A stretch of 15,256 bases of DNA from a virus (taxonomy: Duplodnaviria; Heunggongvirae; Uroviricota; Caudoviricetes). Positions 1 through 15,256 of the stretch are shown one piece after another. A program made the position numbers and the translations under genes. Numbering within the stretch: position 1 is the stretch's first letter; every line of letters starts with the position of its first letter. The notes below the pieces were generated by a model. The model was given only the letters and a program-made list of their open reading frames with translations, did not search any database and was not told the DNA's origin. The DNA is taken from IMG/VR virus record IMGVR_UViG_2526164646_000014. The stretch is one strand, 5' to 3'.

Positions 1-48
1 TTATACCCCGCAGGGGTCATAACATGCTTGACAACTTAATAGGGGCAC

Positions 49-738
49 GTTACTCTCCGGACTCCGCACCGCCGTGTTCTTCGGTTCAAGTCCCAACATC
101 CGGGCGAACTGGCGTGTTTCATTAGCCCGGTAGCATGAACCATTATCCGTCAGCCACTCCACTGGAGACGACGGAAGATCGTTGCCGAAGCGGCGTTCCA
201 CCGCTCCCAGCATGACGTCCTGTACTGTTTCACTGTTGAAGCCGCCGGTAGTCACCGCCCAGTGCAGTGCCTCACGATCACAGCAGTCCAGCGCGAACGT
301 GACACGCAGTCTCTCTCCGTTATCACAGCAGAACTCGAACCCGTCAGAGCACCATCGCTGATTGCTTTCTTTCACGGCCACTCTGCCTGTATGTGCCCGT
401 TTCGATGGCGGTACAGCAGGTTTTCGCTCAAGCAACAGCGCATTCTGGCGCATGAGCCGGTAAACACGTTTGGCATTGATCGCAGGCATACCATCAAGTT
501 CTGCCTGTCTGCGAAGCAGCGCCCATACCCGACGATAACCATACGTGGGCAGCTCTCCGATAACATGGTGTATACGGAGAAGCACATCCGTATCATCAGT
601 GTGACGACTGCGGCGGCCATCCATCCAGTCATCGGTTCGTCTGAGAATGACGTGCAACTGCGCACGCGACACCCGGAGACAACGGCTGACTAAGCTTACT
701 CCCCATCCCCGGGCAATAAGGGCGCGTGCGCTATCCAC
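49..738 (-). pseudogene. insD: IS2 orfB transposase InsD, 3'-truncated (about 230 of about 301 aa retained)
   Basis: Translation [14 protein letters not shown]...[10 protein letters not shown] then diverges ([15 protein letters not shown]-stop); the C-terminal part of the DDE domain is missing. Confidence 0.8.
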
Positions 739-1061
739 TTTTTTGCCCGTCCATATTCAACGGCTTCTTTGAGGAGTTCATTTTCCATCGTTTTCTTGCC
801 GAGCAGGCGCTGGAGTTCTTTAATCTGCTTCATGGCGGCAGCAAGTTCAGAGGCAGGAACAACCTGTTCTCCGGCGGCCACAGCAGTAAGACTTCCTTCC
901 TGGTATTGCTTACGCCAGAGAAATAACTGGCTGGCTGCTACACCATGTTGCCGGGCAACGAGGGAGACCGTCATCCCCGGTTCAAAGCTCTGCTGAACAA
1001 TTGCGATCTTTTCCTGTGTGGTACGCCGTCTGCGTTTCTCCGGCCCTAAGACATCAATCAT
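696..1061 (-). CDS. insC: IS2 orfA transposase subunit InsC (121 aa, HTH)
   Basis: Starts [24 protein letters not shown]..., ATG at 1061..1059 on the minus strand; the track ORF 696..1106 carries a 15-codon N-terminal extension that runs into the inverted repeat. Confidence 0.85.
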
Positions 1062-1152
1062 CTGTTCTCCAATGACTAGTCTAAAAACTAGTATTAAGAC
1101 TATCACTTAAATAAGTGATACTGGTTGTCTGGAGATTCAGGGGGCCAGTCTA

Positions 1153-1893
1153 GATGCCAACACAAAGGCAACTAATAAAGATACAGATAAAGATCTAAAA
1201 ACAGATCTAACCCATCCCAAACCCTTCCCTTCCGGAAGGGAGTTTCGGGATTTTGTGGCTGGAGTGCTTGAGGGGAGATTATCTGGCGGTACTGCAGCGG
1301 AATTTTGTAATTCTGCGGTGGTTGCGTTGCAGGCTGCTGGCCTGGATGTCTGTCGTGAGTATCCGGTGCCAGAGCGTGGTGACGGTTGCGGAGGGCGGAT
1401 TGATATCGTCGTGACTGACAGGAACGGTGTCCGGTGTGGGATCGAGCTTGACCGAAATTCTCCGCGACAGAAATCACTGCTCAAAATCGGTGCTGTTGAA
1501 ACCGGGATATGTGTCTTGCGGCGCAGTGATATCGCAAGGCACACCGAGCAGGGAATTCTGGTTATCGGTGGGGCTGTTCGCCAGAAAAAATTTGACCCGT
1601 TGTCAGTTGATCTGCCCGACTGGTTGCCAGAAACACTCTGGCATGAGTGGGTCCAGTTCAGGCAGGCATTGCGAAAACCGATTCGAACGGAGCTGGGCGC
1701 TAACGGGGCGATACGGGAACTGGAAAAATTCCGTCAGCAGGGTTTTACACCTGAGCAGGTGATTCGACACAGCATCGCCAATGAATACCAGGGTCTGTTC
1801 GCGCCGAAAGGTGTTCGGCCTGAGACGTTGCTCCGACAGGTTAACACCGTCTCGTTGCCGGACAGTGCGATCCCGCTAGGCTTCAGGGGGTAA
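1153..1893 (+). pseudogene. Phage replication-initiation protein fragment (lambda O / Rac YdaU-like C-terminal part), 5'-truncated by IS2
   Basis: Reading frame is open from the IS2 junction at 1153 with no start codon until GTG at 1255; sits directly upstream of the DnaC-like gene as in Rac ydaU-ydaV (recalled gene order). Confidence 0.6.
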
Positions 1894-1899
1894 CAGACC

Positions 1900-2646
1900 A
1901 TGAAAAATATTGCGACAGGAGGCGTTCTGGAGCGTATCCGCAGACTGACCCCACCACATGTAACCGCCCCATTCAGAACGGTTGCGGAGTGGCGCGAGTG
2001 GCAACTTGCTGAAGGCCAGAAACGTTGCGAGGAGATCAACCGCCTGAATCGTCAGTTGCGGGTGGAAAAAATCCTGAACCGCTCCGGCATCCAGCCGTTG
2101 CACCGGAAGTGTTCGTTTGCGAATTACCGGGCGCAGAACGACGGTCAGCGACATGCACTGAGTCAGGCGAAATCCATAGCTGACGAACTGATGACAGGCT
2201 GTACGAATTTTGTGTTCAGCGGTAAGCCCGGCACCGGAAAAAATCATCTTGCAGCCGCGATTGGCAACCGGCTGATGGCGAAGGGGCGTAGCGTGATTAT
2301 CGTCACCGTGTCCGATGTCATGAGCGTGTTGCATGAGAGCTACGACAACGGCAAATCCGGTGAAAAATTTTTACAGGAGCTTTGTGGTGTTGACCTGCTG
2401 GTCCTGGATGAAATTGGCATGCAGCGGGATACGAAAAACGAGCAGGTGGTACTGAACCAGATTGTTGATCGCCGGACGGCATCGTTACGCGGTGTGGGGA
2501 TGCTGACAAATATTAACCATGCAGCGATGAATACACTTCTCGGCGAGCGGGTGATGGATCGCATGGTCATGAACGGCGGGCGCTGGGTTAATTTTAACTG
2601 GGAGAGCTGGCGTCCGAATGTTAGCCATTCGAGGGTTGTTAAGTAG
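1900..2646 (+). CDS. DnaC-like helicase loader / replication ATPase (AAA+)
   Basis: Walker A FSGKPGTGKNHLAAA and Walker B DLLVLDEIG in the translation; ATG at 1900 follows the upstream stop at 1891..1893; resembles Rac YdaV from memory. Confidence 0.85.
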   Translation: MKNIATGGVLERIRRLTPPHVTAPFRTVAEWREWQLAEGQKRCEEINRLNRQLRVEKILNRSGIQPLHRKCSFANYRAQNDGQRHALSQAKSIADELMTGCTNFVFSGKPGTGKNHLAAAIGNRLMAKGRSVIIVTVSDVMSVLHESYDNGKSGEKFLQELCGVDLLVLDEIGMQRDTKNEQVVLNQIVDRRTASLRGVGMLTNINHAAMNTLLGERVMDRMVMNGGRWVNFNWESWRPNVSHSRVVK

Positions 2647-2660
2647 TTTCAGGAGGATTT

Positions 2661-3083
2661 ATGGCGAAACCTTTTACTCCCGAACAGCGGGAAGAACTGA
2701 AGACGCGAATTGTGGAACTCGTGCATCAGGACGGTCGGGTCACGATTCGGCAGTTGTCCGATGAAACAGGTATCAGTCGTGCGTCTGTCGGTCGCTTATG
2801 CATAGAACTGGTCGCAAGTGGTGATGTATATAATTCTGGCTACGGCTTATTCCCGTCTGAACAGGCTCGCAAGGACTGGCAAAGCGCCCGCAAAAAACTC
2901 TCGAGAGTAAAGGTGAGGAAACCGGTTGTTGTTGATCCGGACCTTATCTGGTCATTACCTGACGGAGAAATACGCCGCTACGACAGGCGCCTGAATATAA
3001 TCTGTCGCGAGTGCCGGAAGAGCGAAGCTATGCAGCGTGTACTGGCTTTCTATCAGGGTAATTTTCAGGAGGCGATACTGTGA
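2661..3083 (+). CDS. Hypothetical phage protein, possible winged-helix DNA-binding fold
   Basis: 140-aa ORF with AGGAGG Shine-Dalgarno at 2651..2656; HTH-like stretch VTIRQLSDETGISRASVGRL. Confidence 0.6.
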   Translation: MAKPFTPEQREELKTRIVELVHQDGRVTIRQLSDETGISRASVGRLCIELVASGDVYNSGYGLFPSEQARKDWQSARKKLSRVKVRKPVVVDPDLIWSLPDGEIRRYDRRLNIICRECRKSEAMQRVLAFYQGNFQEAIL

Positions 3084-3497
3084 ATGAAATTAGCTATCAG
3101 GCTTCAATTACCGCTGGCATTCGCATCAAAGGAGAGGAGCATGGAAATAAAACCAGAAGATGAGTTAAGCAATATCGTTTTATTTCCGATAAAAGAGGAT
3201 GACCCTCGTAATCAGGTTAATTTTCTTTATAAGCCATCGGAAAGACCATATTGCCATCACGCCTCTGTACGGGTTGACGAAAAAGAGCGTCAGGTCCGCT
3301 GTAAAATCTGCGGTGCGGTTGTGGAGCCGTTTGACTGGATGCTCTCTGTGGCAAAAAGAGAAACCAGACTGGCAGATGATGTAAGGCTATTGCGCCAGGA
3401 GGAACAGGAAAGGCGGAGAAATATAGAAAAGCTGATACAGATTGAGCGTAACGCGAAAGCGCGGATACGCAGGGCGACAAAATCCAGAACTGAATAA
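3084..3497 (+). CDS. Hypothetical phage protein with C-HH...C-x2-C zinc-ribbon-like motif (alternative start 3141)
   Basis: ATG 3084 abuts the upstream stop (TGAATG); internal ATG 3141 has a stronger SD (ggagaggag, 3131..3139). C-terminal half is coiled-coil-like and basic. Confidence 0.55.
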   Translation: MKLAIRLQLPLAFASKERSMEIKPEDELSNIVLFPIKEDDPRNQVNFLYKPSERPYCHHASVRVDEKERQVRCKICGAVVEPFDWMLSVAKRETRLADDVRLLRQEEQERRRNIEKLIQIERNAKARIRRATKSRTE

Positions 3498-3808
3498 TTA
3501 AATTTAGCACTGTTAAAAATTTAATCCTTAACCGGAGGGATTTCTGCACCCTCAAATCATCAGGAGACCGCCCGAAAGGGCGGTAATGAATGGTTACATT
3601 ATTTAGAAAAAATATCCGCGAAAGAGTAGAACAACAGAATTCCTGTTTCTCATTCTGTTTATCGTGTTGATGACACCGATATCCCCGCAAATTTTTGTCT
3701 GGATAATCGGAAAAATAATTGAGCCAGTTATTGAATTGTATAACGACGTGGTATGGGCGTCATTCAACACACTGCACAATAAAATTAATCCGTATAAGGA
3801 AAGCTGAT

Positions 3809-4174
3809 ATGGCACTGACGAAAAAACAACGTGCAGAACTGCGCATGAAGTTCGGTGGTCGCTGCGCTTATTGCGGCTGCGAACTTGGCGAAAAGTGGCA
3901 TGCAGACCATGTAAAACCGGTCATTCGTTTTGATGGAAATATGCTTCACCAGGAACGTGACGATATATCCAACATGGTACCAGAATGCCACCCATGCAAT
4001 CTGCACAAGCATTGCAGTAGCCTGGAAGATTATCGACGAATTATCAGTGATGGTCGTCGTGAATTCCTTGCGTCCGGGAAAGGCAAAGCGCTGGTTCGTA
4101 TGGGATTGGTTGAAATGAAATCTGACCCGGTTGTGTTCTGGTTTGAAAAATATCAAGAAGGGGCTACGGCATGA
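3809..4174 (+). CDS. HNH endonuclease
   Basis: HNH signature in translation: CAYCGCEL...HADHVKP...NMVPECHPCNLHK; SD aagga at 3796..3800; the track ORF from 3719 is a 5' over-extension. Confidence 0.8.
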   Translation: MALTKKQRAELRMKFGGRCAYCGCELGEKWHADHVKPVIRFDGNMLHQERDDISNMVPECHPCNLHKHCSSLEDYRRIISDGRREFLASGKGKALVRMGLVEMKSDPVVFWFEKYQEGATA

Positions 4175-4836
4175 CTACTATTACCAAAGAGCGACTGCAA
4201 TGGCTGGCTAACATTTCTGGCCGCGATGATATTGACGATATAGACGGCGGTGAAATTCGTGAACTGGCGCTTATCGCTCTGGCATCACTGGAAGCAGAGC
4301 CTGTAGCGGAATGCATTGTTGAAGATGGGGGCATGTGTATTGACGGGTTCGGTGAGTATGTGGGTCACTCGCTGCCTGATGGAATGCATGAGCTTTATGC
4401 TGCCCCGCGAATGCGACAACCTGATGGATGGAAAGCCGTAGCTGTAGCGTGGAAGGTGACGTTTACTCAAGTTGACCAGGAATCTAATACGTTCACTGCT
4501 ATATATTTTTACAAAGCGGAAGTTGAGCGTTGGGTACGACTGCATAAAGCATGTGATTTTCGGGCAGATATAACACCGCTTTACGCAGCGCCGGCAGTGC
4601 CGGTTGCAGTAAACGACGACATGGCTTACGCATTCCATCACGCACTGTCAGATTCATCGCTTGGCTCTGATGAAATCGAAGAAATTAAAACCGGTTTGCG
4701 TGCTGCCTTTGCCAACGTCACTATCCAACCAGAGCCGATAGTGCCGGATGAAATCGGGCCAAACGATAGTAATACGTTTGATTATGTTGATGGCTGGAAC
4801 GCCTGCCGCGCTGCCATGCTTAAGGGAGATAAATAA
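4171..4836 (+). CDS. Hypothetical phage protein (acidic, 221 aa)
   Basis: ATGA overlap with the HNH stop (4171..4174) indicates translational coupling; no motif recognised. Confidence 0.55.
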   Translation: MTTITKERLQWLANISGRDDIDDIDGGEIRELALIALASLEAEPVAECIVEDGGMCIDGFGEYVGHSLPDGMHELYAAPRMRQPDGWKAVAVAWKVTFTQVDQESNTFTAIYFYKAEVERWVRLHKACDFRADITPLYAAPAVPVAVNDDMAYAFHHALSDSSLGSDEIEEIKTGLRAAFANVTIQPEPIVPDEIGPNDSNTFDYVDGWNACRAAMLKGDK

Positions 4837-5201
4837 TGATTAATCGAACCAAACTGGAGCACATTCTCGAATATGCCAGGCAGCAGAAATGTATTGGGCA
4901 ACTTTGTAAAATTCCACCAGGAGATATGGTTGAAATCGTGGAAATGGCCATGCGTAAGGCTGGCAACTCTCCGGTAACTCTGGCTGGCTGGATAAGCTGT
5001 AGTGATGCAGTTCCTGCTGAATATTGCGATGTGATTCTTCTCGATGATCTCGGGAATGTATTCCCCGGTTCCTGGGATAAGGTTTTTTGCCCCACTCGTG
5101 GCGGGAATAAGATGGCTTTTGTGGACAAAGACGGCGTTGAAGTAGAGAGCTCAACTCACTGGATGCCGCTACCGGAACCACCGCAGGAGGTGAATCAATG
5201 A
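4836..5201 (+). CDS. DUF551-like phage protein
   Basis: TAATG overlap with the upstream gene; C-terminal ...STHWMPLPEPPQ resembles the DUF551 signature recalled from lambdoid nin regions. Confidence 0.6.
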   Translation: MINRTKLEHILEYARQQKCIGQLCKIPPGDMVEIVEMAMRKAGNSPVTLAGWISCSDAVPAEYCDVILLDDLGNVFPGSWDKVFCPTRGGNKMAFVDKDGVEVESSTHWMPLPEPPQEVNQ

Positions 5202-5281
5202 CCTGGCCTGAGGCATTCACCACGGTAGGAATTGCGATGGCGGTGGCGCTGGTGGTGTATTCGATTTGCCGTTGGGGTTAA
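5198..5281 (+). CDS. 27-aa small hydrophobic peptide (single predicted transmembrane helix)
   Basis: ATG 5198 overlaps the upstream stop (ATGA); AGGAGG at 5185..5190 with 7-nt spacing; MTWPEAFTTVGIAMAVALVVYSICRWG; intrinsic terminator follows. Too short for the supplied ORF track. Confidence 0.5.
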   Translation: MTWPEAFTTVGIAMAVALVVYSICRWG

Positions 5282-5288
5282 CAAACAA

Positions 5289-5318
5289 AAACCCCGGATT
5301 GATGGTCCGGGGTTTTTG
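5289..5318 (+). terminator. Rho-independent terminator
   Basis: Stem acccccgga / tccgggg(t) at 5292..5299 and 5306..5313 followed by TTTTT. Confidence 0.8.
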
Positions 5319-5655
5319 AAGGAAACAAAACAGAAACAGCAATTGCCGTTACCTGTTGTTACCATGGCAAGTAAACGTATCTCAGGCGAGCGCATTGCGC
5401 CGTTCTGACGCAGATAAATTAGCCTGGATAGAAGGTGCTGGCAATAAAAAATAGCGTTTTCTTATCGGTATCGGTAAGATTGCTGCGGGTGCTTGAGGCT
5501 GTCTGCCTCGGGCATGCCACTGTAAGGCAGACAGAGAAAAGCCCCAGTTAACATTACGCGTCCTGCAAGACGCTTAACATTAATCTGAGGCCCAATCTAT
5601 GTCTCACAAATGTAGGTTAGCCTCTTACGTGCCGAAAGGCAAGGAGAAGCAGGCT

Positions 5656-5811
5656 ATGAAGCAGCAAAAGGCGATGTTAATCGCCCTGATCGTCATCTGT
5701 TTAACCGTCATAGTGACGGCACTGGTAACGAGGAAAGACCTCTGCGAGGTACGAATCCGAACCGGCCAGACGGAGGTCGCTGTCTTCACAGCTTACGAAC
5801 CTGAGGAGTAA
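5656..5811 (+). CDS. hokD: Hok/Gef-family type I toxin (51 aa), HokD/RelF-like
   Basis: MKQQKAMLIALIVICLTVIVTALVTRKDLCEVRIRTGQTEVAVFTAYEPEE matches the Hok architecture (TM helix then conserved C..R..G..EVA.F.AYE); SD aaggag at 5641..5646, 9 nt before the ATG. The track ORF from 5599 is an in-frame 5' extension. Confidence 0.85.
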   Translation: MKQQKAMLIALIVICLTVIVTALVTRKDLCEVRIRTGQTEVAVFTAYEPEE

Positions 5812-5880
5812 GAGACCAGGCGGGGGAGAAATCCCTCGCCACCTCTCATGTGTCAGGCATCCTCAACGCACCCGCACTAA

Positions 5881-5902
5881 ACCCGCTTTGGCGGGTTTTT
5901 TG
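5881..5902 (+). terminator. Rho-independent terminator downstream of hok
   Basis: cccgc-tttg-gcggg hairpin (5883..5895) followed by a T6 tract. Confidence 0.75.
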
Positions 5903-6046
5903 TTGCGTGCTGAATACGCAGGGTGAAAAATAACCATATATTTGATTATATACACAACAAAAATAAAAGTCATTGTACTTGCACATTAAACAATCAAATA
6001 TACGGCGTGAAATAAATATTTATCAGATTAATATTTTTGTCTCTAT

Positions 6047-6298
6047 GTGGATATAACCGTTTGTACTTATAAACCTGGGGGCATCGTGGAAAAAATAAAG
6101 AAACTATTTAGTAGCAAATACGCAGTCATACGTCGTGATGACCTGTCAGTTATAGTCGAAATGGATTACTTCCCTGAAACCCCAAAATCAATAATGTATC
6201 GTAATGGTCGAAAGGCAATTTTTTTACCGATGAGGGTAAGTGACATTATGGGAAATGATAAACTGCTGGATGAATTGCGAGTCAGAGCATCCTGTTAG
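6047..6298 (+). CDS. rem: Rem-like small prophage protein (83 aa)
   Basis: ORF with GTG start and no clear SD; position right after hok matches the Qin prophage order hokD-rem-ydfU in E. coli K-12 (recalled). Start uncertain. Confidence 0.45.
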   Translation: MDITVCTYKPGGIVEKIKKLFSSKYAVIRRDDLSVIVEMDYFPETPKSIMYRNGRKAIFLPMRVSDIMGNDKLLDELRVRASC

Positions 6299-6315
6299 TA
6301 GGTAATGACTCCAAC

Positions 6316-6819
6316 TTACTGATAGTGTTTTATGTTCAGATAATGCCCGATGACCTTGTCATGCAGCTCCACCGATTTTGAGAACGACAGTGACTTCCGT
6401 ACCAGCCTTGCCAGATGTTGTCTCAGATTCAGATTATGTCGCTCAATGCGCTGAGTGTAACGCTTGCTGATAACGTGCAGCTTTCCCTTCAGGCGTGATT
6501 CATACAGCGGCCAGCCATCCGTCATCCATACCACGACCTCAAAGGCCGACAGCAGGCTCAGAAGACGCTCCAGTGTGGCCAGAGTGCGTTCACCGAAGAC
6601 GTGCGCCACAACCGTCCTCCGTATCCTGTCATACGCGTAAAACAGCCAGCGCTGACGTGATTTAGCACCGACGTAGCCCCAATGTTCGTCCATTTCAGCG
6701 CAGACAATCACATCACTGCCCGGTTGTATGCGCGAGGTTACCGACTGCGGCCTGAGTTTTTTAAGTGACGTAAAACCGTGTTGAGGCCAACGCCCATAAT
6801 GCGTGCACTGGCGCGACAT
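6316..6819 (-). CDS. insB: IS1 InsB (fused to InsA by frameshifting to give the transposase)
   Basis: 167-aa ORF overlapping insA in the -1 frame; matches recalled InsB. Confidence 0.9.
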
Positions 6820-7013
6820 CCGACGCCATTCATGGCCATATCAATGATTTTCTGGTGCGTACCGGGCTGAGAGGCGGTGTAAGTGAACTGTAGTTGCCAT
6901 GTTTTACGGCAATGAGAGCAGAGATAGCGCTGATGTCCGGCAGTGCTTTTGCCGTTACGCACCACGCCTTCAGTAGCGGAGCAGGAAGGACATCTGATGG
7001 AAATGGAAGCCAC
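6738..7013 (-). CDS. insA: IS1 InsA
   Basis: [42 protein letters not shown]... (91 aa). Confidence 0.9.
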
Positions 7014-7146
7014 GCAAGCACCTTAAAATCACCATCATACACTAAATCAGTAAGTTGGCAGCATTACCCTGTTAGTATTGGCATTAATTCTGGTATACTA
7101 CATAACGGGCTGAACACCCATTCTACTGCGCCAGCGGAGAACTACG

Positions 7147-7746
7147 ATGGCGCATATACAACTGGTCAAACAAACCTCTTCCGGATTACTTCTCCCGGCG
7201 ACGCCGGAGAGTTGCGATTTTTTGCATCAAATCAAAATAGGTGAGTGGATACACGCAGACTTTAAGCGTGTGCGTAACTACGCATTCCACAAGCGTTTTT
7301 TCAAACTCCTGCAACTGGGATTTGATTACTGGACTCCGGTCGGTGGGGCGATCACGCCTCGCGAACGAAAACTGGTATCAGGCTTCGTTGATTACCTGTG
7401 CGAATCAGTAGGTCGGGAACACACTCCAGCCCTGAGTGATGCCGCAGAGCAATACCTTAATACAGTTGCGACATGCAGAACCCGGGATACGGCATTGCTA
7501 AAGTCGTTTGACGCTTTCCGCGAGTGGGTAACCATTCAGGCCGGATTTTACACCGAGCATATTTATCCTGATGGTAGTCGTGGGCGCAGGGCAAAATCTA
7601 TCGCATTTGCGAACATGGACGAAACCGAGTTTCAGCAGGTTTATAAATCTGTACTGAATGTGCTGTGGAACTGGATCCTGTTCCGTAAATTTTCCTCTCC
7701 GGAGGAAGTCGAAAATGTGGCCGCGCAGTTACTGGAGTTTGCGTAA
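7147..7746 (+). CDS. DUF1367-like phage protein (YdfU-like)
   Basis: 199-aa ORF; ggag SD at 7134..7137; position between rem and Q as in Qin (recalled). Confidence 0.6.
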   Translation: MAHIQLVKQTSSGLLLPATPESCDFLHQIKIGEWIHADFKRVRNYAFHKRFFKLLQLGFDYWTPVGGAITPRERKLVSGFVDYLCESVGREHTPALSDAAEQYLNTVATCRTRDTALLKSFDAFREWVTIQAGFYTEHIYPDGSRGRRAKSIAFANMDETEFQQVYKSVLNVLWNWILFRKFSSPEEVENVAAQLLEFA

Positions 7747-8036
7747 TGGTGGATTTACGTAAAGCGGCGCGGGGGCAGATGTGCACCGTCAGAATTCCTG
7801 GCTACTGCAATCACAATCCCGAAACTTCTGTGCTGGCGCATTACAGGCTGGCGGGGACGTGCGGAACAGCGACAAAACCACACGATATGCAGGCAGCGAT
7901 TGCCTGTAGCTCATGCCACGATTTAATCGACGGGCGGGTAAAAACCAGCGATTACACCAAAGAAGAATTACGCCTGATGCATGCAGAAGGTGTTTTTCGC
8001 ACACAAGAAATCTGGAGAAAGGAAGGTTATTTATGA
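7746..8036 (+). CDS. DUF1364-like cysteine-rich protein (YbcO-like putative nuclease)
   Basis: 96 aa with cysteines in pairs (C..C, C...C, CSSCHD); TAATG overlap with the upstream gene. Confidence 0.6.
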   Translation: MVDLRKAARGQMCTVRIPGYCNHNPETSVLAHYRLAGTCGTATKPHDMQAAIACSSCHDLIDGRVKTSDYTKEELRLMHAEGVFRTQEIWRKEGYL

Positions 8037-8587
8037 TTTACCCAACAAATACAGGCAAAAGCGGGGAACACCTTCGTCTCACCACGCTGGAAAGTGTCTG
8101 GATTCAGGGAAAACTGCGCATGTGGGGGCGCTGGTCGTATATTGGCGGCGGTAAGACGGGAAATATGTTTAACCAGTTGCTGGCATCCAAAAAATTGACG
8201 AAAACAGCCGTCAATGAAGCCCTGCGCAGGATGAAAAAAGCGGGAATAGAGAAACCTGAGCTGGAAGCGTTTTTGCGAGAGATGATCAATGGCAAGCAAA
8301 AGACCTGGCTGGCGCATTGTACTGATGCAGAGGCGTTATGTATTGATAGAGTCATAAGTGAGGTGCTGGCAGAGCATCCTGGATTGATTAGTGTCCTCCG
8401 GCAACGGTATGAAGGGCGGGGGATGACTAAGCGTAAAATGGCTGAATTGCTGAATGACGCACACCCTGAGTGGTGTTTCCGGACGTGCTGCAGTCGGGTA
8501 GATGTATGGCTAAATCTTGCTGAATATATGCTCTATCTACCGATGCGTGATGCATTCTCTTCCGGGGATCTAAAAACCGTTTGTTGA
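8033..8587 (+). CDS. Late-gene antiterminator Q-like protein (184 aa)
   Basis: ATGA overlap with the upstream gene; SD aaggaagg upstream of 8033; stop codon embedded in a strong promoter followed by a short leader and intrinsic terminator (the Q-qut-pR'-tR' arrangement). Track ORF from 7913 is an overlapping 5' extension. Confidence 0.6.
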   Translation: MIYPTNTGKSGEHLRLTTLESVWIQGKLRMWGRWSYIGGGKTGNMFNQLLASKKLTKTAVNEALRRMKKAGIEKPELEAFLREMINGKQKTWLAHCTDAEALCIDRVISEVLAEHPGLISVLRQRYEGRGMTKRKMAELLNDAHPEWCFRTCCSRVDVWLNLAEYMLYLPMRDAFSSGDLKTVC

Positions 8588-8613
8588 CTCAATCTGTTAT
8601 CCGGGGCTATATT
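8584..8613 (+). promoter_or_regulatory. pR'-like late promoter (TTGACT-18 bp-TATATT)
   Basis: -35 TTGACT at 8584..8589 and -10 TATATT at 8608..8613, immediately after Q. Confidence 0.5.
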
Positions 8614-8674
8614 CCTCACGCGCCAGCAAAATCTGGCGTCGGGATTGGCGTCCCGGATGTTTACGGAGCGATAT

Positions 8675-8697
8675 GAGACGCGCCCGCGTCTTTTTTC
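8675..8697 (+). terminator. tR'-like intrinsic terminator
   Basis: gacgc-gccc-gcgtc hairpin (8677..8690) followed by TTTTTT (8691..8696). Confidence 0.75.
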
Positions 8698-8974
8698 ATA
8701 TCGTTTGCACAGTCACATTCGCGATTTATGGCGGGCTGTGTGGGGGAGCCGAAAGGCTCGCCGGTTTCCGTACCCGGTTACGCCAACCCTGCACAGTTCG
8801 CCACCAGTTCGATTGGCGTCGTCGGTGGCGATAATTTCCAAATGTACGGAGTTATCGTTATGACCACTCAAATCTCTGTTGAAACTCTCTCCCCGATCAC
8901 CCATAACCAGTGAGGTAGCCTGAGTTTAACGGACACTCCTTCCTGAAATAGAATGGCATCAGAAGGAGCTAATA

Positions 8975-9277
8975 ATGAGCAGAAAAACCCAACGTTACTC
9001 TAAAGAGTTCAAAGCCGAAGCTGTCAGAACGGTTCTTGAAAATCAACTTTCGATCAGTGAAGGCGCTTCCCGATTATCCCTTCCTGAAGACACTTTAGGA
9101 CAATGGGTTACCGCCGCCAGAAAAGGGCTCGGTACTCCTGGTTCCCGCACGGTGGCTGAACTGGAATCTGAAATTCTGCAACTGCGTAAGGCGTTAAATG
9201 AAGCTCGCCTTGAGCGAGATATATTAAAAAAAGCAACAGCGTATTTTGCACAGGAGTCGCTGAAAAATACGCGTTAA
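8975..9277 (+). CDS. IS600 OrfA (HTH plus leucine zipper)
   Basis: MSRKTQRYSKEFKAEAVRTV...LERDILKKATAYFAQESLKNTR. Confidence 0.85.
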   Translation: MSRKTQRYSKEFKAEAVRTVLENQLSISEGASRLSLPEDTLGQWVTAARKGLGTPGSRTVAELESEILQLRKALNEARLERDILKKATAYFAQESLKNTR

Positions 9278-9312
9278 TCGAACAATGGCGACAACAATTT
9301 CCCATTGAAGCG

Positions 9313-10131
9313 ATGTGTCAGGTATTTGGTGTATCCAGGAGCGGTTATTACAACTGGGTACAGCATGAACCCTCAGACAGAAAACAAAGTGATGAGCGGC
9401 TAAAACTGGAGATTAAGGTGGCACATATCCGCACTCGCGAAACATATGGAACCCGGCGGCTCCAGACGGAGCTGGCAGAGAATGGCATCATCGTTGGTCG
9501 TGACCGACTGGCACGTCTTCGTAAGGAGCTGAGGCTACGCTGTAAGCAGAAACGCAAGTTCAGAGCGACTACGAACCCGAACCACAATCTGCCAGTTGCG
9601 CCAAATCTGCTGAACCAGACGTTCGCTCCTACAGCACCAAATCAGGTCTGGGTGGCGGACCTGACGTATGTTGCCACACAGGAGGGATGGTTGTACCTCG
9701 CTGGCATCAAAGATGTTTATACGTGCGAAATTGTCGGCTACGCCATGGGAGAGCGCATGACAAAAGAGCTGACAGGTAAAGCCCTGTTTATGGCGCTCAG
9801 GAGCCAGCGCCCACCTGCCGGGCTAATCCACCACTCTGATCGAGGTTCACAGTACTGCGCATACGATTACCGGGTCATACAGGAGCAGTCTGGTCTGAAA
9901 ACATCAATGTCGCGTAAAGGTAACTGTTACGACAACGCTCCGATGGAAAGCTTCTGGGGAACGCTGAAAAATGAGAGCCTGAGCCACTATCGTTTTAATA
10001 ACCGGGATGAAGCCATCTCAGTAATACGGGAATACATTGAGATTTTCTACAATCGTCAGCGTCGTCACTCTCGTCTGGGGAATATCTCCCCGGCAGCCTT
10101 CAGGGAAAAATATCATCAGATGACTGCTTAA
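9313..10131 (+). CDS. IS600 OrfB (DDE transposase catalytic domain; expressed as OrfAB by -1 frameshift)
   Basis: 272-aa ORF in the -1 frame relative to orfA, with IS3-family DDE-region sequence (WVADLTYV..., HHSDRGSQY). Confidence 0.85.
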   Translation: MCQVFGVSRSGYYNWVQHEPSDRKQSDERLKLEIKVAHIRTRETYGTRRLQTELAENGIIVGRDRLARLRKELRLRCKQKRKFRATTNPNHNLPVAPNLLNQTFAPTAPNQVWVADLTYVATQEGWLYLAGIKDVYTCEIVGYAMGERMTKELTGKALFMALRSQRPPAGLIHHSDRGSQYCAYDYRVIQEQSGLKTSMSRKGNCYDNAPMESFWGTLKNESLSHYRFNNRDEAISVIREYIEIFYNRQRRHSRLGNISPAAFREKYHQMTA

Positions 10132-10779
10132 AAAAAGAACAAATGGTAGTGTCCGCTATTGCCAGTACACCTCACAGATTCCTGTTATTACCACCGAACT
10201 TTTGGCGCAGCTTTACGGCACTGAGCCGGTGCGTATTCGCCAGAATCATCATGAGAACAAAGTACGCTTCGTTGAAGGGAAACACTTTTTCAAAGTTGTT
10301 GGTAATGACCTTAAAGAATTGCGGGTCGCTTTAAACTACTCACAAAATCCAGTTTCACCCAAAGCCCGCTCCCTCATCCTCTGGACAGAACGAGGCGCAG
10401 CACGCCACGGCAAAATGCTCGAAACCGATCAGGCGTGGGATGTGTTCGAAAAACTGGAAGACTGCTATTTCAGTCAAAGGGATCCGTCAACGCCAGTTTC
10501 ATGCCAGAAAAGTTACGACACGCGAGTTCTCTGTTATCAGAGAGGCGGTGTCACTGTTTCCACAATTCAGTTACGGGATGATGATATTGTTATTTCCCTT
10601 GAGTCATGGCTGGAACTGGCGAGAGCCAATGGTTGGTTTGTTGTTCGCAGAGATAAACTGGTGGAAAGGTTGATGCAGCTTTAAAAAAGTTCTTGCATTT
10701 TTGCACATAAACTGCTTCAATTCCGGTAAGCTTCGCAAAGCTGTATCGCGAGGCGAATAGCAGACATGGACACTTGAAA

Positions 10780-10805
10780 GAACCCGCTTTATGCGGGTTT
10801 TTTTG
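10780..10805 (+). terminator. Rho-independent terminator after the ORF6N gene
   Basis: acccgc-tttat-gcgggt hairpin followed by T7 tract. Confidence 0.75.
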
Positions 10806-10892: not shown

Positions 10893-10969
10893 GGCCCTTT
10901 AGCTCAGTTGGTCAGAGCGAGCGACTCATAATCGCCAGGTCGCTGGTTCAAGTCCAGCAAGGGCCACCA
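10893..10969 (+). tRNA. tRNA-Ile2 (anticodon CAU, lysidine type; formally could be Met)
   Basis: Hand-folded cloverleaf: acceptor GGCCCTT/AAGGGCC, anticodon loop CTCATAA (CAT at 10927..10929), T-loop TTCAAGT, encoded CCA; close to recalled E. coli ileX. Confidence 0.8.
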
Positions 10970-10970
10970 A

Positions 10971-11047
10971 CCACCACTAGCTCATCCGGATAGAGCATCA
11001 ACCTTCTAAGTTGACGGTGCGAGGTTCGAGTCCTCGGTGGTGGGCCA
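10971..11047 (+). tRNA. tRNA-Arg (anticodon UCU)
   Basis: Acceptor CCACCAC/GTGGTGG (unusual C1:G72), anticodon loop CTTCTAA (TCT at 11005..11007), T-arm CGAGG-TTCGAGT-CCTCG, encoded CCA. Confidence 0.75.
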
Positions 11048-11049
11048 GC

Positions 11050-11125
<76 letters not shown>

Positions 11126-11128
11126 TAT

Positions 11129-11203
<75 letters not shown>

Positions 11204-12274
11204 TGACCTTTCTTAAAGTACTCCAACCTACTGAATCCTAAGGGATACGGCTTTAAGCCTCCTTGCAGAGTTACTTACTGTAACCCACTGTGTAACCCTC
11301 TCAGGGCATACAGACATATGATTCAGCTATCCAGTAGTCACAAACTTCCAGCAGTCTACTATCTCTACCAGCGTAACGGCGTCTACTACTTCCGTCTTAG
11401 GGTCAGACAATCAAACAATGATAGAATGACCTCAATATCATTACGGACCAAGGATAGACGCACCGCTATGGCTTACTCAAGGCACATAAAGGCAGCACTC
11501 AAGGCAATACACGCAGACAGACCCAACGCTACCTACGAGGAAATGAGGGAACACCTTAAGGACATCGCTGAGTGTGAACTGTCTATGGGCCGTTCAGATC
11601 TCTTTGAGCCTGACATGAGGGATATCTACCGGGACCAATACGGAGAACTTGGTGAGAGCCTTACCGATGCTCTGGCTAGTGAGCCGCTAAGCATTGACCA
11701 GCATCGTTACATCAATGAGGCCCTGAAGGTGCTAAAAGCCTGTATGAGGCGTATCGAAGCGGGAGACAGTCAGCCTCTGATAGATTACGTCGATCTTTTT
11801 AATGATATTGATAGGCAAGATAACCAAGCAGACTCTGTGTCCCTATCTGTTAATGCTCCAGAAGTAAAACCAGAAGTTACGCCTAGCATTACCATAGCGA
11901 GCCTCTTTGAGCAATACGAAGCGGAGAACTATCAGAACTGGAAGCCTGCAACCTTAAGGGAAAACAAGGCGTCACACGCTGCGTTAATCGAAATATTCGA
12001 CCATCTGGGTCTCAATGCAGACGCTAACAGGGCTGACATGCTTAGGGTCCGTGATGTGCTCCAGCAGTTACCTAGGAACCGTAAGCAGCGCTTCAAGGAT
12101 GTCCCACTTGCTGACCTGTTGAGCCGTGAAGATAAGACAGATTGTCTGGATGTCGTTACCATCAACAACAAGTATCTTATTAAGATGGCTGCTGTCTTTA
12201 GGTGGGCTGTGCGCAATGACTTGATTAAAAAGAACATGACTGAGGGTCTGGAGCTTAAAGTCCCTCTGAAGTGG

Positions 12275-13441
<1,167 letters not shown>

Positions 13442-14259
13442 TGGAGCACCTGTGTTGTTCTGAGGTGAGCATATCACCTCTGTTCAGGTGGCCAAATTCA
13501 GTGTGCCACTTCACTCAGCGTAAAGCCTCAGGGGCCCGTAACGCCTTCTCTACGGAGCAGGTGGGGCAACTACTGGTCGCAGCTAAGGCATACTCTCAGA
13601 AGACCTCTGGTAAGCCGTATCATTATTATGTTACCGCCTTGGCTGCTATCACTGGGGCGAGACTCAATGAAATAGCCCAACTACAGGTCAAAGACGTCAG
13701 GACCACTGAGGCGGGAACCGTTTATATTCATATCAATGAAGACGATAGTAGTCTACCCGGTAAGAGCATCAAGAACGCTCATAGTGACCGCTGTGTGCCT
13801 CTGGTCGATGGGGCCTATGGTTTTATATTGGCTGACTTTATGGCGCTTGTAGAGACCCGTAGAGGCGCTGACGGTGATGACGCTATGGTGTTCGATGGTC
13901 TGCGTCTCATGAAGAACGGTTACGGTGAGCAGGTGAGTAAATGGTTTAATCGGACGTTGTTGCCTAAAGTCCTCGTAGACCGTAGCGGCTTAGCGTTTCA
14001 CTCGTTTAGACATACAGTTGCGACCCAGTTAAAACAACATGGGGTCGAGTTGGCGTATGCACAGGCGATCATGGGGCATAGTTCAGGGTCTATTACGTAC
14101 GACCGTTATGCTAAAGAGGTCGAGGTTGATAGGCTGGTCAATGTGATGGCTGATGTTTATAAGGAGACCTAGAGGAGACCATAGTCTAGGATGACACTTA
14201 CTACAGACCTGTGTGGTCATGTTTTTGACTCATAGTTTTCTCTACTTGTCAAGGATAAT

Positions 14260-14282
14260 TAATACGACTCACTATAGGGAGA
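14260..14282 (+). promoter_or_regulatory. Perfect T7 RNA polymerase class III promoter consensus (TAATACGACTCACTATAGGGAGA), +1 G at 14277
   Basis: Exact 23/23 match to the T7 -17..+6 consensus read directly from the sequence; points rightward toward the repeat region and the Rha-like gene. Confidence 0.85.
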
Positions 14283-14480
14283 AGGGACACAAAAAGTTTT
14301 CTCTTCTAGGACAACTAACCGTAACTTATCGCATCCTTTCAGGGGCGGGATGACCAATTACAGACACCAAGCGTTCTACTTAAAGTGAATGCTTCCTGTG
14401 TGCTCTGGGTCAGTCGATAAGTGAATAGCAATAAGACACAATCATCTTAATTATGGTCTCTAGTCCCTACAGGGGCTTAA

Positions 14481-14565
14481 CTTAAAGTTAACTTAAAGAC
14501 ACAATTAAAGATTAACTTATAGTATTACTTAAAGTTAACTTAAAGACACAATTAGAGATTAACTT
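14481..14565. repeat. AT-rich tandem duplication (38-bp unit cttaaagttaacttaaagacacaatta[a/g]agattaactt, period 47 bp) inside a ~140-bp AT-rich tract rich in TTAAAG
   Basis: Copies at 14481..14518 and 14528..14565 differ at one position; additional TTAAAG / ATTAAAGA motifs extend to about 14615. Confidence 0.8.
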
Positions 14566-14666
14566 TAAGTATTAAATAAAAGATTTAATTAAAGACCAAT
14601 TAAAGATTAACTCTAAGGGAATACCTTAAGGGGTGATGATATTTATAATAATCAATCACCAAACCT

Positions 14667-14743
14667 ATAGGTCTTCTCTAGGGTCTCTCTATAGGTCTTC
14701 TCTATGGTCTCTCTATAGGTCTCTCTAGGGTCTCCTCTAGGCA
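14667..14743 (+). repeat. Iteron array B: about 6 direct copies of a 12-bp unit (A/G)GGTCT(C/T)TCTCTA
   Basis: aggtcttctcta gggtctctctat aggtcttctctat ggtctctctat aggtctctct agggtctcctctagg, read directly. Confidence 0.8.
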
Positions 14744-14760
14744 TTACCCCCAGAAGCTAA

Positions 14761-14800
14761 CTCTATGGCCCTCTATGGTCCTCTATGGTCCTCTATGGCC
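14761..14800 (+). repeat. Iteron array C: 4 perfect tandem 10-bp units CTCTATGG(C/T)C
   Basis: ctctatggcc ctctatggtc ctctatggtc ctctatggcc. Confidence 0.85.
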
Positions 14801-14847
14801 CTGTACGTCATTCTTTAGGATGCCCTGTAGTTTCGTATAGCCTGATG

Positions 14848-14892
14848 CCTAGAGAGACCCTAGAGAGACCCTAGAGTGGCTCCTAGAGAGAC
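14848..14892 (-). repeat. Iteron array D: 4 copies of CCTAGAGAGAC (reverse complement of the array B unit)
   Basis: cctagagagac cctagagagac cctagagtggct cctagagagac; reverse complement GTCTCTCTAGG matches array B units. Confidence 0.8.
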
Positions 14893-15055
14893 CCTCCCAG
14901 TAGCTCCGCACAGCTACATCGTCATCATCATAGTATTCAATCTCAAAGTCATTCTGTTTGCATCCTGTTGTCCTGCTGGTCTCCCTTCGCTTGGGGACTT
15001 TGAGTAGGTCAGTGGGGGTGCGACTTCAGGGTGCAAACAAAAAGGAAATCAAGCG

Positions 15056-15228
15056 ATGTCTCAACAACCACAACAACCACAACAACCACAACAACCACAA
15101 CAAGAAATCAGCATCATTAACCTCGACCAGCTTGTGTCCATGACCTCAGTTGAAATTGCTGAGCTGACAGGCAAGGAGCACCGAAATGTCCTTCGTGATA
15201 TTCGTAAGATGCTCGAAGAACTTAACGC
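15056..15228 (+). pseudogene. Phage regulatory protein Rha-like (N-terminal 57 codons), truncated by IS1
   Basis: SD agga at 15043..15046; MSQQPQQPQQPQQPQQEISIINLDQLVSMTSVEIAELTGKEHRNVLRDIRKMLEELNA then the IS1 end; the SVEIAELTGKEHRNVLRDIRK stretch resembles the Rha family N-terminus (recalled). Confidence 0.6.
15062..15103 (+). repeat. In-frame 9-bp tandem repeat (CAACAACCA x4.7) encoding (QQP)n
   Basis: caacaacca repeated, read directly in the Rha-like ORF. Confidence 0.9.
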
Positions 15229-15256
15229 GGGTAATGCTGCCAACTTACTGATTTAG
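15229..15256 (+). mobile_element. IS1, terminal 28 bp of a second copy (runs off the window), inverted relative to the copy at 6301..7068
   Basis: GGTAATGCTGCCAACTTACTGATTTAG is identical to the end of the first copy at 7068..7042 (reverse complement). Confidence 0.85.

Follow-up and report, generated by a model that had tools for sequence, protein, structure and literature searches.

Copy-variable repeat arrays in the origin-like non-coding module of a decayed T7 island

Three arrays of short repeats crowd into one non-coding stretch of IMG/VR record IMGVR_UViG_2526164646_000014, and the question they raise is what, if anything, they do there. This record (the window, meaning the whole stretch of DNA analysed, 15,256 nt) had been read earlier from its letters alone, and that original prediction took the array tract, within 14655-14900, for a binding platform of replication initiators, partition proteins, integrase arm domains or packaging factors. 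We find that the arrays lie in an 883-bp non-coding module, flanked on the left by the 3' end of a gene for a tyrosine integrase and on the right by that for a Rha-like regulator. The element that holds them is a T7 island, i.e. a small element integrating at tRNA-Gly, with a tyrosine integrase and T7-group promoters and no phage RNA polymerase gene. Our answer, in which we place slightly more belief than doubt, is that the arrays are recent, dispensable, variable-number tandem expansions of a GGTCTC-core motif pair in a phage-driven leader and origin-like region.

Tandem Repeats Finder called three arrays at the spot that had been described: a left one (14665-14739; period 12, 6.2 copies, score 88, or taken as period 24, 92% match and score 127), a middle one (14761-14802; period 10, 4.2 copies, 93% match) and a right one (14848-14895; period 11, 4.3 copies). 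Direct reading of the sequence and pattern counts set against expectation agree with the program, and the three arrays, in direct and inverted orientation, are real, far beyond chance. The pattern GGTCTCTCTAKR has six matches, three on each strand, all inside 14682-14893, where 0.20 would be expected, and a count of six was reached in none of 200 shuffles; CTCTATGGYC has five matches against 0.02 expected, all inside 14700-14800. Reverse-complemented, the right unit CCTAGAGAGAC reads exactly as the left one, GGTCTCTCTAGG.

The details of the earlier reading largely stood. Its roughly six direct copies are the six abutting left units, and its four perfect middle units are followed by a degenerate fifth (Table 1). 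The four inverted copies are present as to number, although only three are perfect and one is a variant, and a further inverted copy stands apart from them at the end of the integrase gene. Because the units abut one another, with no unique spacers between them, the arrays are not CRISPR, as had been said. The tract had also been called non-coding, and it is so in the sense that related loci carry no annotation there; the sole open reading frame (ORF) of at least 60 amino acids (aa) near the arrays is one of 61 aa with a TTG start (14958-15143). A search for the motif beyond the arrays, which had been proposed as a check, found neither GGTCTCTCTAKR nor CTCTATGGYC anywhere else in the window by pattern scan, and exact 18-mers of the arrays in IMG/VR occurred only in the same island lineage, plus single chance matches in coding DNA or unrelated repeats. 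A dispersed repetitive element family was considered and rejected, the motif being without copies at many unrelated loci, both in the window and among the IMG/VR 18-mers.

The first feature, from the left, of the module in which the arrays lie is a perfect T7 class III promoter, which local BLAST against T7 aligns with phi13, phi6.5 and phi10 at 100% identity along 26-27 nt; the longest T7 match of this region is to phiOR (42 nt at 86%). In relatives the T7 promoter is kept within a unit of 118 bp that occurs one to three times in tandem; the window has a single promoter. The tyrosine integrase gene stands directly upstream in the same orientation. Since a scan between the promoter and the Rha-like gene found no sigma-70-like promoter above chance and no terminator, the arrays fall within a leader of about 780 nt whose transcription one would expect from a phage polymerase only. 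A polymerase gene was not seen in the window, as judged from the annotation of matching E. coli records and from Pfam searches of selected ORFs, which together are less than a complete scan; by the same sources the window is otherwise made up of lambdoid prophage, tRNA genes and insertion sequence (IS) elements.

Comparison with related islands (loci numbered L001 onward) shows how unstable the tract is. E. coli relatives at the tRNA-Gly gene glyU, with flanks 88-93% identical, show each of the outer motifs just once (..TATAGGTCTCCTCAAGG.. and ..GGCTCAGAGACCC..), and the middle unit, CT(G/C)TA(T/C)GG(C/T)C, occurs one to four times in relatives. On the right side the E. coli relatives have one degenerate motif copy and then a second T7-like promoter-like site, which is missing in the window. 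Two loci, L013 and L016, lack the array tract entirely. L010 and L012 belong to the window lineage, sharing its prophage site and IS1 junction and being near-identical around the arrays; yet their left, middle and right arrays have 7, 3 and 3 units (L012) and at least 5, 3 and 4 (L010, where an IS cuts the left array), against 6, 4 and 4 in the window. Such copy-number differences among near-identical sisters mean that the arrays behave as a variable-number tandem repeat. Searching 5,426 complete E. coli genomes with the window arrays gave no site that covers even 80% of the query, the matches ending outside the arrays.

Other repeats of the family vary as well: GATGACCATAGGC has 1-13 copies, with 13 after the integrase gene in E. 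coli EC17CM13 (L001 11679-11847), and AATCAATACGA has 1-3. Klebsiella-type loci L044 and L045, a metagenome island (L044 on the reverse strand), have a separate array, (GGTCTCCTCACAGGTCATCCCTTG) x 3 + (GGTCATCCCTTG) x 4, placed directly past the hairpin, which is the position of the window's left array; its unit is different and has the same (A/G)GGTC core. Within the window lineage the left motif has changed from GGTCTCCTCAAGG to GGTCTCTCTAGG and the right one from CTCAGAGACC to CCTAGAGAGACC, with perfect complementarity retained. Arrays thus arise and change by gain and loss of units, and they are dispensable for membership in the family.

Not being conserved, the arrays cannot be an essential platform, and this bears first on the classical readings of the original prediction, by which they would be iterons of an island initiator, a partition site or arm-type sites of the integrase. 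We hold all of these to be very improbable. As at iteron origins of plasmids, phages or phage-inducible chromosomal islands (PICIs), short abutting repeats adjoin AT-rich DNA (14477-14650, directly to the left). Unlike those origins, the island has no cognate initiator gene: Rep, primase, helicase and ParA/ParB-like genes were not found in any island examined, and no island protein had a Rep, primase or helicase match in Pfam, PHROGs, PADLOC or NCBIfam. The units are moreover shorter (just 10-13 nt), abut without spacing, and differ among relatives both in sequence and in number, from zero to seven. The initiator platform therefore fails for want of an initiator-like gene and of conservation, and the partition platform for want of any partition-family protein in the islands examined. 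As for the integrase, arm-type sites are expected within roughly 150 bp of the att (attachment) core. The arrays are separated from the left site, attL, by 3.5 kb in the window and by 2.2 kb in L012; in the complete relative L001 the distances of the homologous position are 2.6 kb to attL and 1.7 kb to attR, too far for arm sites.

Direct and inverted copies of a 12-nt motif upstream of a Rha-family regulator gene, with a further copy at the left edge of the module, could also be operator-like sites, through which the island's own Rha-like or KilA-N protein would feed back on the phage-driven transcript. This is distinctly improbable in our view. Islands from E. coli O26 and Klebsiella have the same Rha-type gene and leader without such arrays, and the KilA-N-type E. 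coli relatives have the single-copy motifs too, so motif and regulator type do not co-vary. In the window lineage, furthermore, IS1 has destroyed the Rha-like gene while the arrays have gone on changing.

Folded as a single strand, the tract forms a long imperfect hairpin (-106.5 kcal/mol, z = -6.2) that none of 200 shuffles equals. Lying inside a leader without a terminator, and with arms that have co-evolved, it might act as RNA, the long duplex in the transcript being an RNase III processing or stabilising site (like the R sites of T7 mRNA) or a roadblock. In relatives, however, the corresponding region shows no unusual structure (z = -1.3), and the unit numbers of the two arms vary independently between sister copies; we regard this function as improbable.

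A second structure in the same transcript is of a different kind. The element of about 115 nt downstream of the promoter is near-identical in E. coli, Klebsiella, Rouxiella, Morganella and metagenomes (other copies are at L017 7458-7574 and in L018, L019, L023 and L039-L055). RNAalifold gives it a four-helix structure of 26 pairs, four of them with compensatory changes, and 99.3% of cells pair, as against at most 41% with slid partners; most of the covariation signal comes from a single split between two clades. It has no Rfam family, and an Rfam scan of 14100-15256 was empty. We consider this element a candidate for a structured RNA transcribed by the phage polymerase, or for structured single-stranded DNA.

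That the arrays sit in a cis-acting non-coding module, as had been suspected, is borne out by what adjoins them: the AT-rich block and the T7 promoter jointly resemble a T7-type replication origin. A T7 promoter followed by AT-rich DNA is enough for phage-dependent initiation. At the T7 origins (phi1.1A/phi1.1B and phiOL/phiOR), as in the island, one to three tandem promoters precede an AT-rich block with TTAAAG or TTTAAG, but in T7 the AT-rich DNA follows the promoter immediately, whereas in the island it begins about 195 nt farther on, behind the structured element. Sequence similarity is weak: against the phage collection, BLAST with the AT-rich block gave matches of E = 0.03 at best (0.03-0.4), at phiOL-adjacent and gene 1/1.1 regions, and local BLAST against T7 alone gave T7 5912-6008 and 414-484 (E = 0.004-0.3). 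In Teseptimavirus Tarrare, the gap between gene 1 and gene 1.1, the position of the T7 primary origin, has two tandem T7 promoters and then a TTTAAG-rich block, and the 16-mer AGAGATTAACTTTAAG of the island block is identical in this origin region. The likeness to an origin, being one of architecture plus weak sequence similarity, is a lead rather than proof.

With such surroundings, the arrays could be functional, multiplied recognition sites for the machinery of a helper or target phage, i.e. its replication or packaging proteins, a reading that we hold to be possible, if doubtful. It comes in two versions. In the first, the units would be sites for the T7 gene 4 primase-helicase (5'-GGGTC or TGGTC) on the strand that synthesis from the promoter displaces, where the opposite strand would start at a T7-type origin; these sites, like the T7 origin model, we take to be work of the Richardson laboratory. 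Canonical primase sites in the 246-nt tract number five on the plus strand (left and middle arrays) and three on the minus strand (right array), whereas 2000 mononucleotide shuffles averaged 1.4 and never exceeded 6. The arrays start 5 nt beyond the hairpin that closes the origin-like AT-rich block, and it is at this same place that the Klebsiella islands have independently expanded their GGTC-core unit. On the other hand, only half of the units in the left array qualify as canonical sites (AGGTC does not), and the enrichment, real as it is, is confounded by the repeats.

In the second version the arrays would mimic the arrays of short repeats bordering the terminal repeat in T7-group genomes and would serve concatemer processing or packaging of the island. 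Dunn and Studier in 1983 are said to have described such arrays (SRL/SRR) on either side of the T7 terminal repeat. Like the island module, SRL/SRR are short imperfect repeat clusters in non-coding DNA near phiOR/phiOL, and SRL-type heptamers resemble the TAAAGAC(A/C) units of the island's AT-rich block. Genome-wide, the densest plus-strand GGTCT windows of T7 and K11 come just before the right terminal repeat and T7 AGACC clusters come just after the left one, an inverted topology that the island arrays share, although this parallel rests on small counts (3 per 150 nt). The Klebsiella unit CCCTTGGGT resembles repeats within the K11 and T7 terminal repeats. The full-length islands encode a predicted HK97-fold shell protein, and some packaging signal is therefore to be expected.

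Differences from the phage ends are nevertheless plain. The island arrays are perfect, recent and copy-variable, unlike SRL/SRR; the module has no terminal-repeat-like sequence, and ATCTGTT, the concatemer-junction pause signal of T7, is absent from 14173-15256. Comparing the tract with the T7 and K11 terminal repeats gave nothing past short words, and BLAST with the tract as query found nothing relevant among 50,697 phage records, only the promoter and AT-rich block of the whole module being matched. Both versions also have to reckon with the confinement of exact 18-mers to one island lineage, chance matches aside, and with the fact that most family members, apparently intact ones included, lack the arrays or have them in single copy.

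We therefore return to variable-number expansion in a phage-driven leader as the reading of choice, with a working of the whole module that we infer from its anatomy and from T7 biology. The polymerase of an infecting phage with T7 promoter specificity would start at 14260-14282 and move rightwards through the 115-nt element, the AT-rich heptamer block, the arrays and lastly the Rha-like gene with those that follow it. The transcript would prime or open the AT-rich block, and downstream island genes would be expressed only in infected cells. The arrays, on the far side of the T7-type origin-like segment and still inside the leader, would gain and lose units by slipped-strand replication. At most they would modulate the module, as multiplied (G/T)GGTC sites or through a long hairpin formed by the transcript or by the displaced strand. 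Given that the island of the window is decayed (see below), its arrays may now be drifting neutrally.

Three observations weigh against so simple an account. (i) The independent expansion of an (A/G)GGTC-core unit in L044/L045, at the same position past the hairpin, hints at selection for multiple copies or at a site-specific cause. (ii) Both arms changed jointly in the window lineage and kept their complementarity, which pure drift does not predict. (iii) Canonical T7 primase sites are about fivefold enriched in the tract.

Table 1. Features of the T7 island copy and its repeat arrays in the window
Feature	Coordinates	Strand	Remarks
tRNA-Gly(TCC)	11129..11203	+	ARAGORN; last gene of tRNA cluster; 3' end is the island attL
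Island tyrosine integrase, split	11318..14172	+	Pfam: DUF6538 N-terminus and Phage_integrase
Extra inverted motif copy GAGACCTAGAGGAGACCATAG	14164..14184	-	At integrase stop codon; inverted pair of 17 nt, 94% complementary
Perfect T7 class III promoter TAATACGACTCACTATAGGGAGA, 23 nt	14260..14282	+	Points at arrays and Rha-like gene
Conserved structured element, ~115 nt	14316..14430	+	In the promoter's transcript; outer helix ACUUAUCGC/GUCGAUAAGU
AT-rich block, TTAACTTAAAG / TTAAAGAC heptamer-type repeats	14477..14612	+	Tandem Repeats Finder: period 47 x 2.9, score 200
AT-loop hairpin GGTGATGATATTTATAATAATCAATCACC	14632..14660	+	Kept in E. coli-type and Klebsiella-type islands; left boundary of variable tract
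Left direct array	14665..14741	+	Six abutting units GGTCT(T)CTCTA(K)(R); array finishes with GGTCTCCTCTAGG at 14741
Middle direct array	14761..14810	+	Four perfect CTCTATGG(C/T)C units (14761-14800), degenerate fifth to 14810
Right array	14848..14895	-	CCTAGAGAGAC: three perfect units and one variant (CCTAGAGTGGCT)
Conserved leader (..CAAAGTCATTCTGTTTGCATCCTGTTGTCCTGCTGGTCTCCCTT..), ~120 nt	14935..15055	+	In E. coli-type, Klebsiella-type and O26-type islands; precedes first promoter-driven gene
Rha-like regulator gene	15056..15229	+	Pfam Phage_pRha, E = 7e-10; truncated by IS1
IS1 start (terminal inverted repeat)	15230..15256	+	Window ends within the IS1 copy

The island copy of the window is integrated in a prophage-borne tRNA-Gly(TCC) gene and not in chromosomal glyU, an arrangement shared by the IMG/VR loci L011 and L012. 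The tRNA cluster concerned (10893-11203; Met/Arg/Thr/Gly) belongs to a lambdoid prophage, and the att repeat of glyU islands in E. coli, 23 nt long, has its counterpart at 11181-11203 with three mismatches. As the right end of the island is beyond the window, only this attL-side repeat is visible. The copy is decayed, because an IS3-family element splits the integrase gene and IS1 truncates the Rha-like gene: the N part of the integrase starts at 11318 and the C part occupies 13441-14172, with an IS3-family transposase gene (12275-13114, minus strand) interrupting them, while intact homologues are 534-544 aa long. The full Rha-like homologue, from E. coli O26, has 242 aa. In the window the N-terminus of the Rha-like protein has an in-frame repeat, CAACAACCA x 4.7 (QQP repeats; 15062-15103), with two units fewer in L012 and none in the O26 homologue. 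The Rha-like/IS1 junction is the same in L012, where it runs on into InsA/InsB of IS1; a window ending inside an IS1 inverted repeat is a typical contig break of an IS-rich genome. Positions 1-10800 hold lambdoid prophage genes (DUF1367, ORF6N, DUF1133, ydaV-like) and a second IS3-family transposase gene (9313-10131).

Related DNA is present in about 210 of the 5,426 complete E. coli genomes, beside glyU in all inspected loci. In E. coli the glyU island measures 4.1-4.3 kb. The tRNA 3' end recurs at its two sides as a direct repeat of 23 nt, and in between it holds the non-coding module along with genes for a 543-aa integrase and a KilA-N protein; direct repeats of 17-24 nt bound both ends of 13 related loci. 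Relatives of the integrase are found throughout Enterobacterales. Islands of 20 species representatives are mostly 5.5-6.4 kb, and nearly all of these have plus-strand 23-mers resembling T7-group promoters 0.6-1.3 kb downstream of the integrase gene. The specificity region of the promoters changes with the host genus (L017-L036): in Klebsiella islands the AATTAGGGCACACTATAGGGAGA promoter equals the annotated phi9, phi10 and phi13 of phage K11, with a T7-type promoter alongside, and the specificity regions are AATTAACTATCACTATTGGGAGA in Pectobacterium and AATTAACCCACACTATAGGGAGA in Proteus and Kluyvera. Some islands have promoters of two or three specificities. Island genes seen are those for the integrase, RAZR/DUF4145, Rha or KilA-N, a small ORF, DUF6971 and an HK97-fold protein; DUF6971, a 63-76-aa ORF and a 157-aa ORF had no informative family match in Pfam, PHROGs, PADLOC or NCBIfam. 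Excised, circular or concatemeric forms were not found among metagenome and Logan contigs, the island-sized ones being chromosomal fragments or contigs broken at a tRNA gene, with no terminal overlap.

The family itself is already known. Chen and Schneider reportedly described it in 2006, by sequence analysis, as tandem T7-like promoter regions in enterobacterial genomes, and are said to have proposed phage-dependent satellite-like elements. We found no experimental follow-up on T7 islands in the searchable literature. The window element has in common with the T7 islands a tyrosine integrase upstream of plus-strand T7-group promoters and the lack of a phage polymerase gene; its relatives share with them end repeats derived from tRNA-Gly, a size of a few kb, an Enterobacterales-wide distribution and mosaicism between copies. 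The window copy differs from other T7 islands in its prophage-borne tRNA-Gly site, its single promoter and its breakage by IS3 and IS1; it is a new, decayed member. The name T7 islands is used for a class of mobile elements in PMC2189734.

Two further genes of the islands are outside the array question. Directly after the integrase gene, many islands encode RAZR, also named PD-T7-4, a DUF4145 HEPN RNase (L017 6609-7241; L038 5544-6203; L013 1839-2480), and the island DUF4145 gene matches PD-T7-4 end to end (E = 8e-99). RAZR is an abortive-infection RNase activated by the portal of T7 and T3 (PMC13017515), and in the original screen PD-T7-4 often overlapped an integrase gene (PMC9519451). It is absent from the window island and from the 4.2-kb E. 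coli glyU islands, the latter having repeat arrays in its place.

The last gene of full-length islands, which encodes 329-402 aa and falls outside the window (L038 11464-12453; L017 9614-10822; L024 9775-10761), was assigned no family by Pfam, PHROGs, PADLOC or NCBIfam. Foldseek with its AlphaFold model (predicted local distance difference test, pLDDT, 66; predicted template modelling score, pTM, 0.66) gave 111 PDB matches at E <= 0.001, with E of about 1e-8 to encapsulins and phage capsid proteins. The top BFVD matches were capsid proteins, one from a T7-like Pseudomonas phage. Template modelling scores (TM-scores) of the structural matches were just 0.3-0.45. Distant sequence relatives have C-terminal immunoglobulin (Ig)-like domains, as many capsid proteins do. 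The model, of moderate confidence, thus predicts an HK97 capsid/encapsulin fold for this protein.

To our knowledge, T7, the most closely studied of virulent phages, has no known satellite. Might the T7 islands be true satellites of virulent T7-group phages? The phage polymerase would switch the island on, and the promoter with the AT-rich block would let the phage replisome copy it. The arrays with GGTC core and the heptamer arrays would be multiplied primase and/or packaging signals, and the HK97-fold protein would build or remodel a shell for a genome of roughly 6 kb. RAZR, sensing the phage portal, would curb the helper, and the variable arrays would tune the use made of it. We offer this whole scenario, drawn from sequence, tentatively and think it rather unlikely to hold in full. 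PICMI (PMC10803314) and the capsid-forming PICIs are likewise small integrative elements with an integrase, few genes and signals keyed to a virulent helper, and the likeness extends to the gene for the predicted HK97-fold protein in the full-length islands. Unlike both, T7 islands are without a terminase, portal or primase gene, and their control would be by promoters for a phage polymerase and not by an anti-repressor.

Taken alone, the arrays are an ordinary hypervariable repeat; their value is as a marker of the cis-acting core of the T7-island family, and their copy number could serve as a typing marker in the carrier lineage, which to go by the names of the closest proteins is probably Shigella. 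What matters more is the combination found in the islands: host-matched promoters, a T7-origin-like block, a structured element, often RAZR, and in full-length copies a protein with a predicted capsid fold. The wider element is a candidate satellite, or a candidate phage-triggered defence island, keyed to T7-group phages. If its replication or transfer does depend on phage, the T7 islands would provide a natural switch triggered by a phage polymerase, and a simple model of virulent-phage parasitism in E. coli and Klebsiella.

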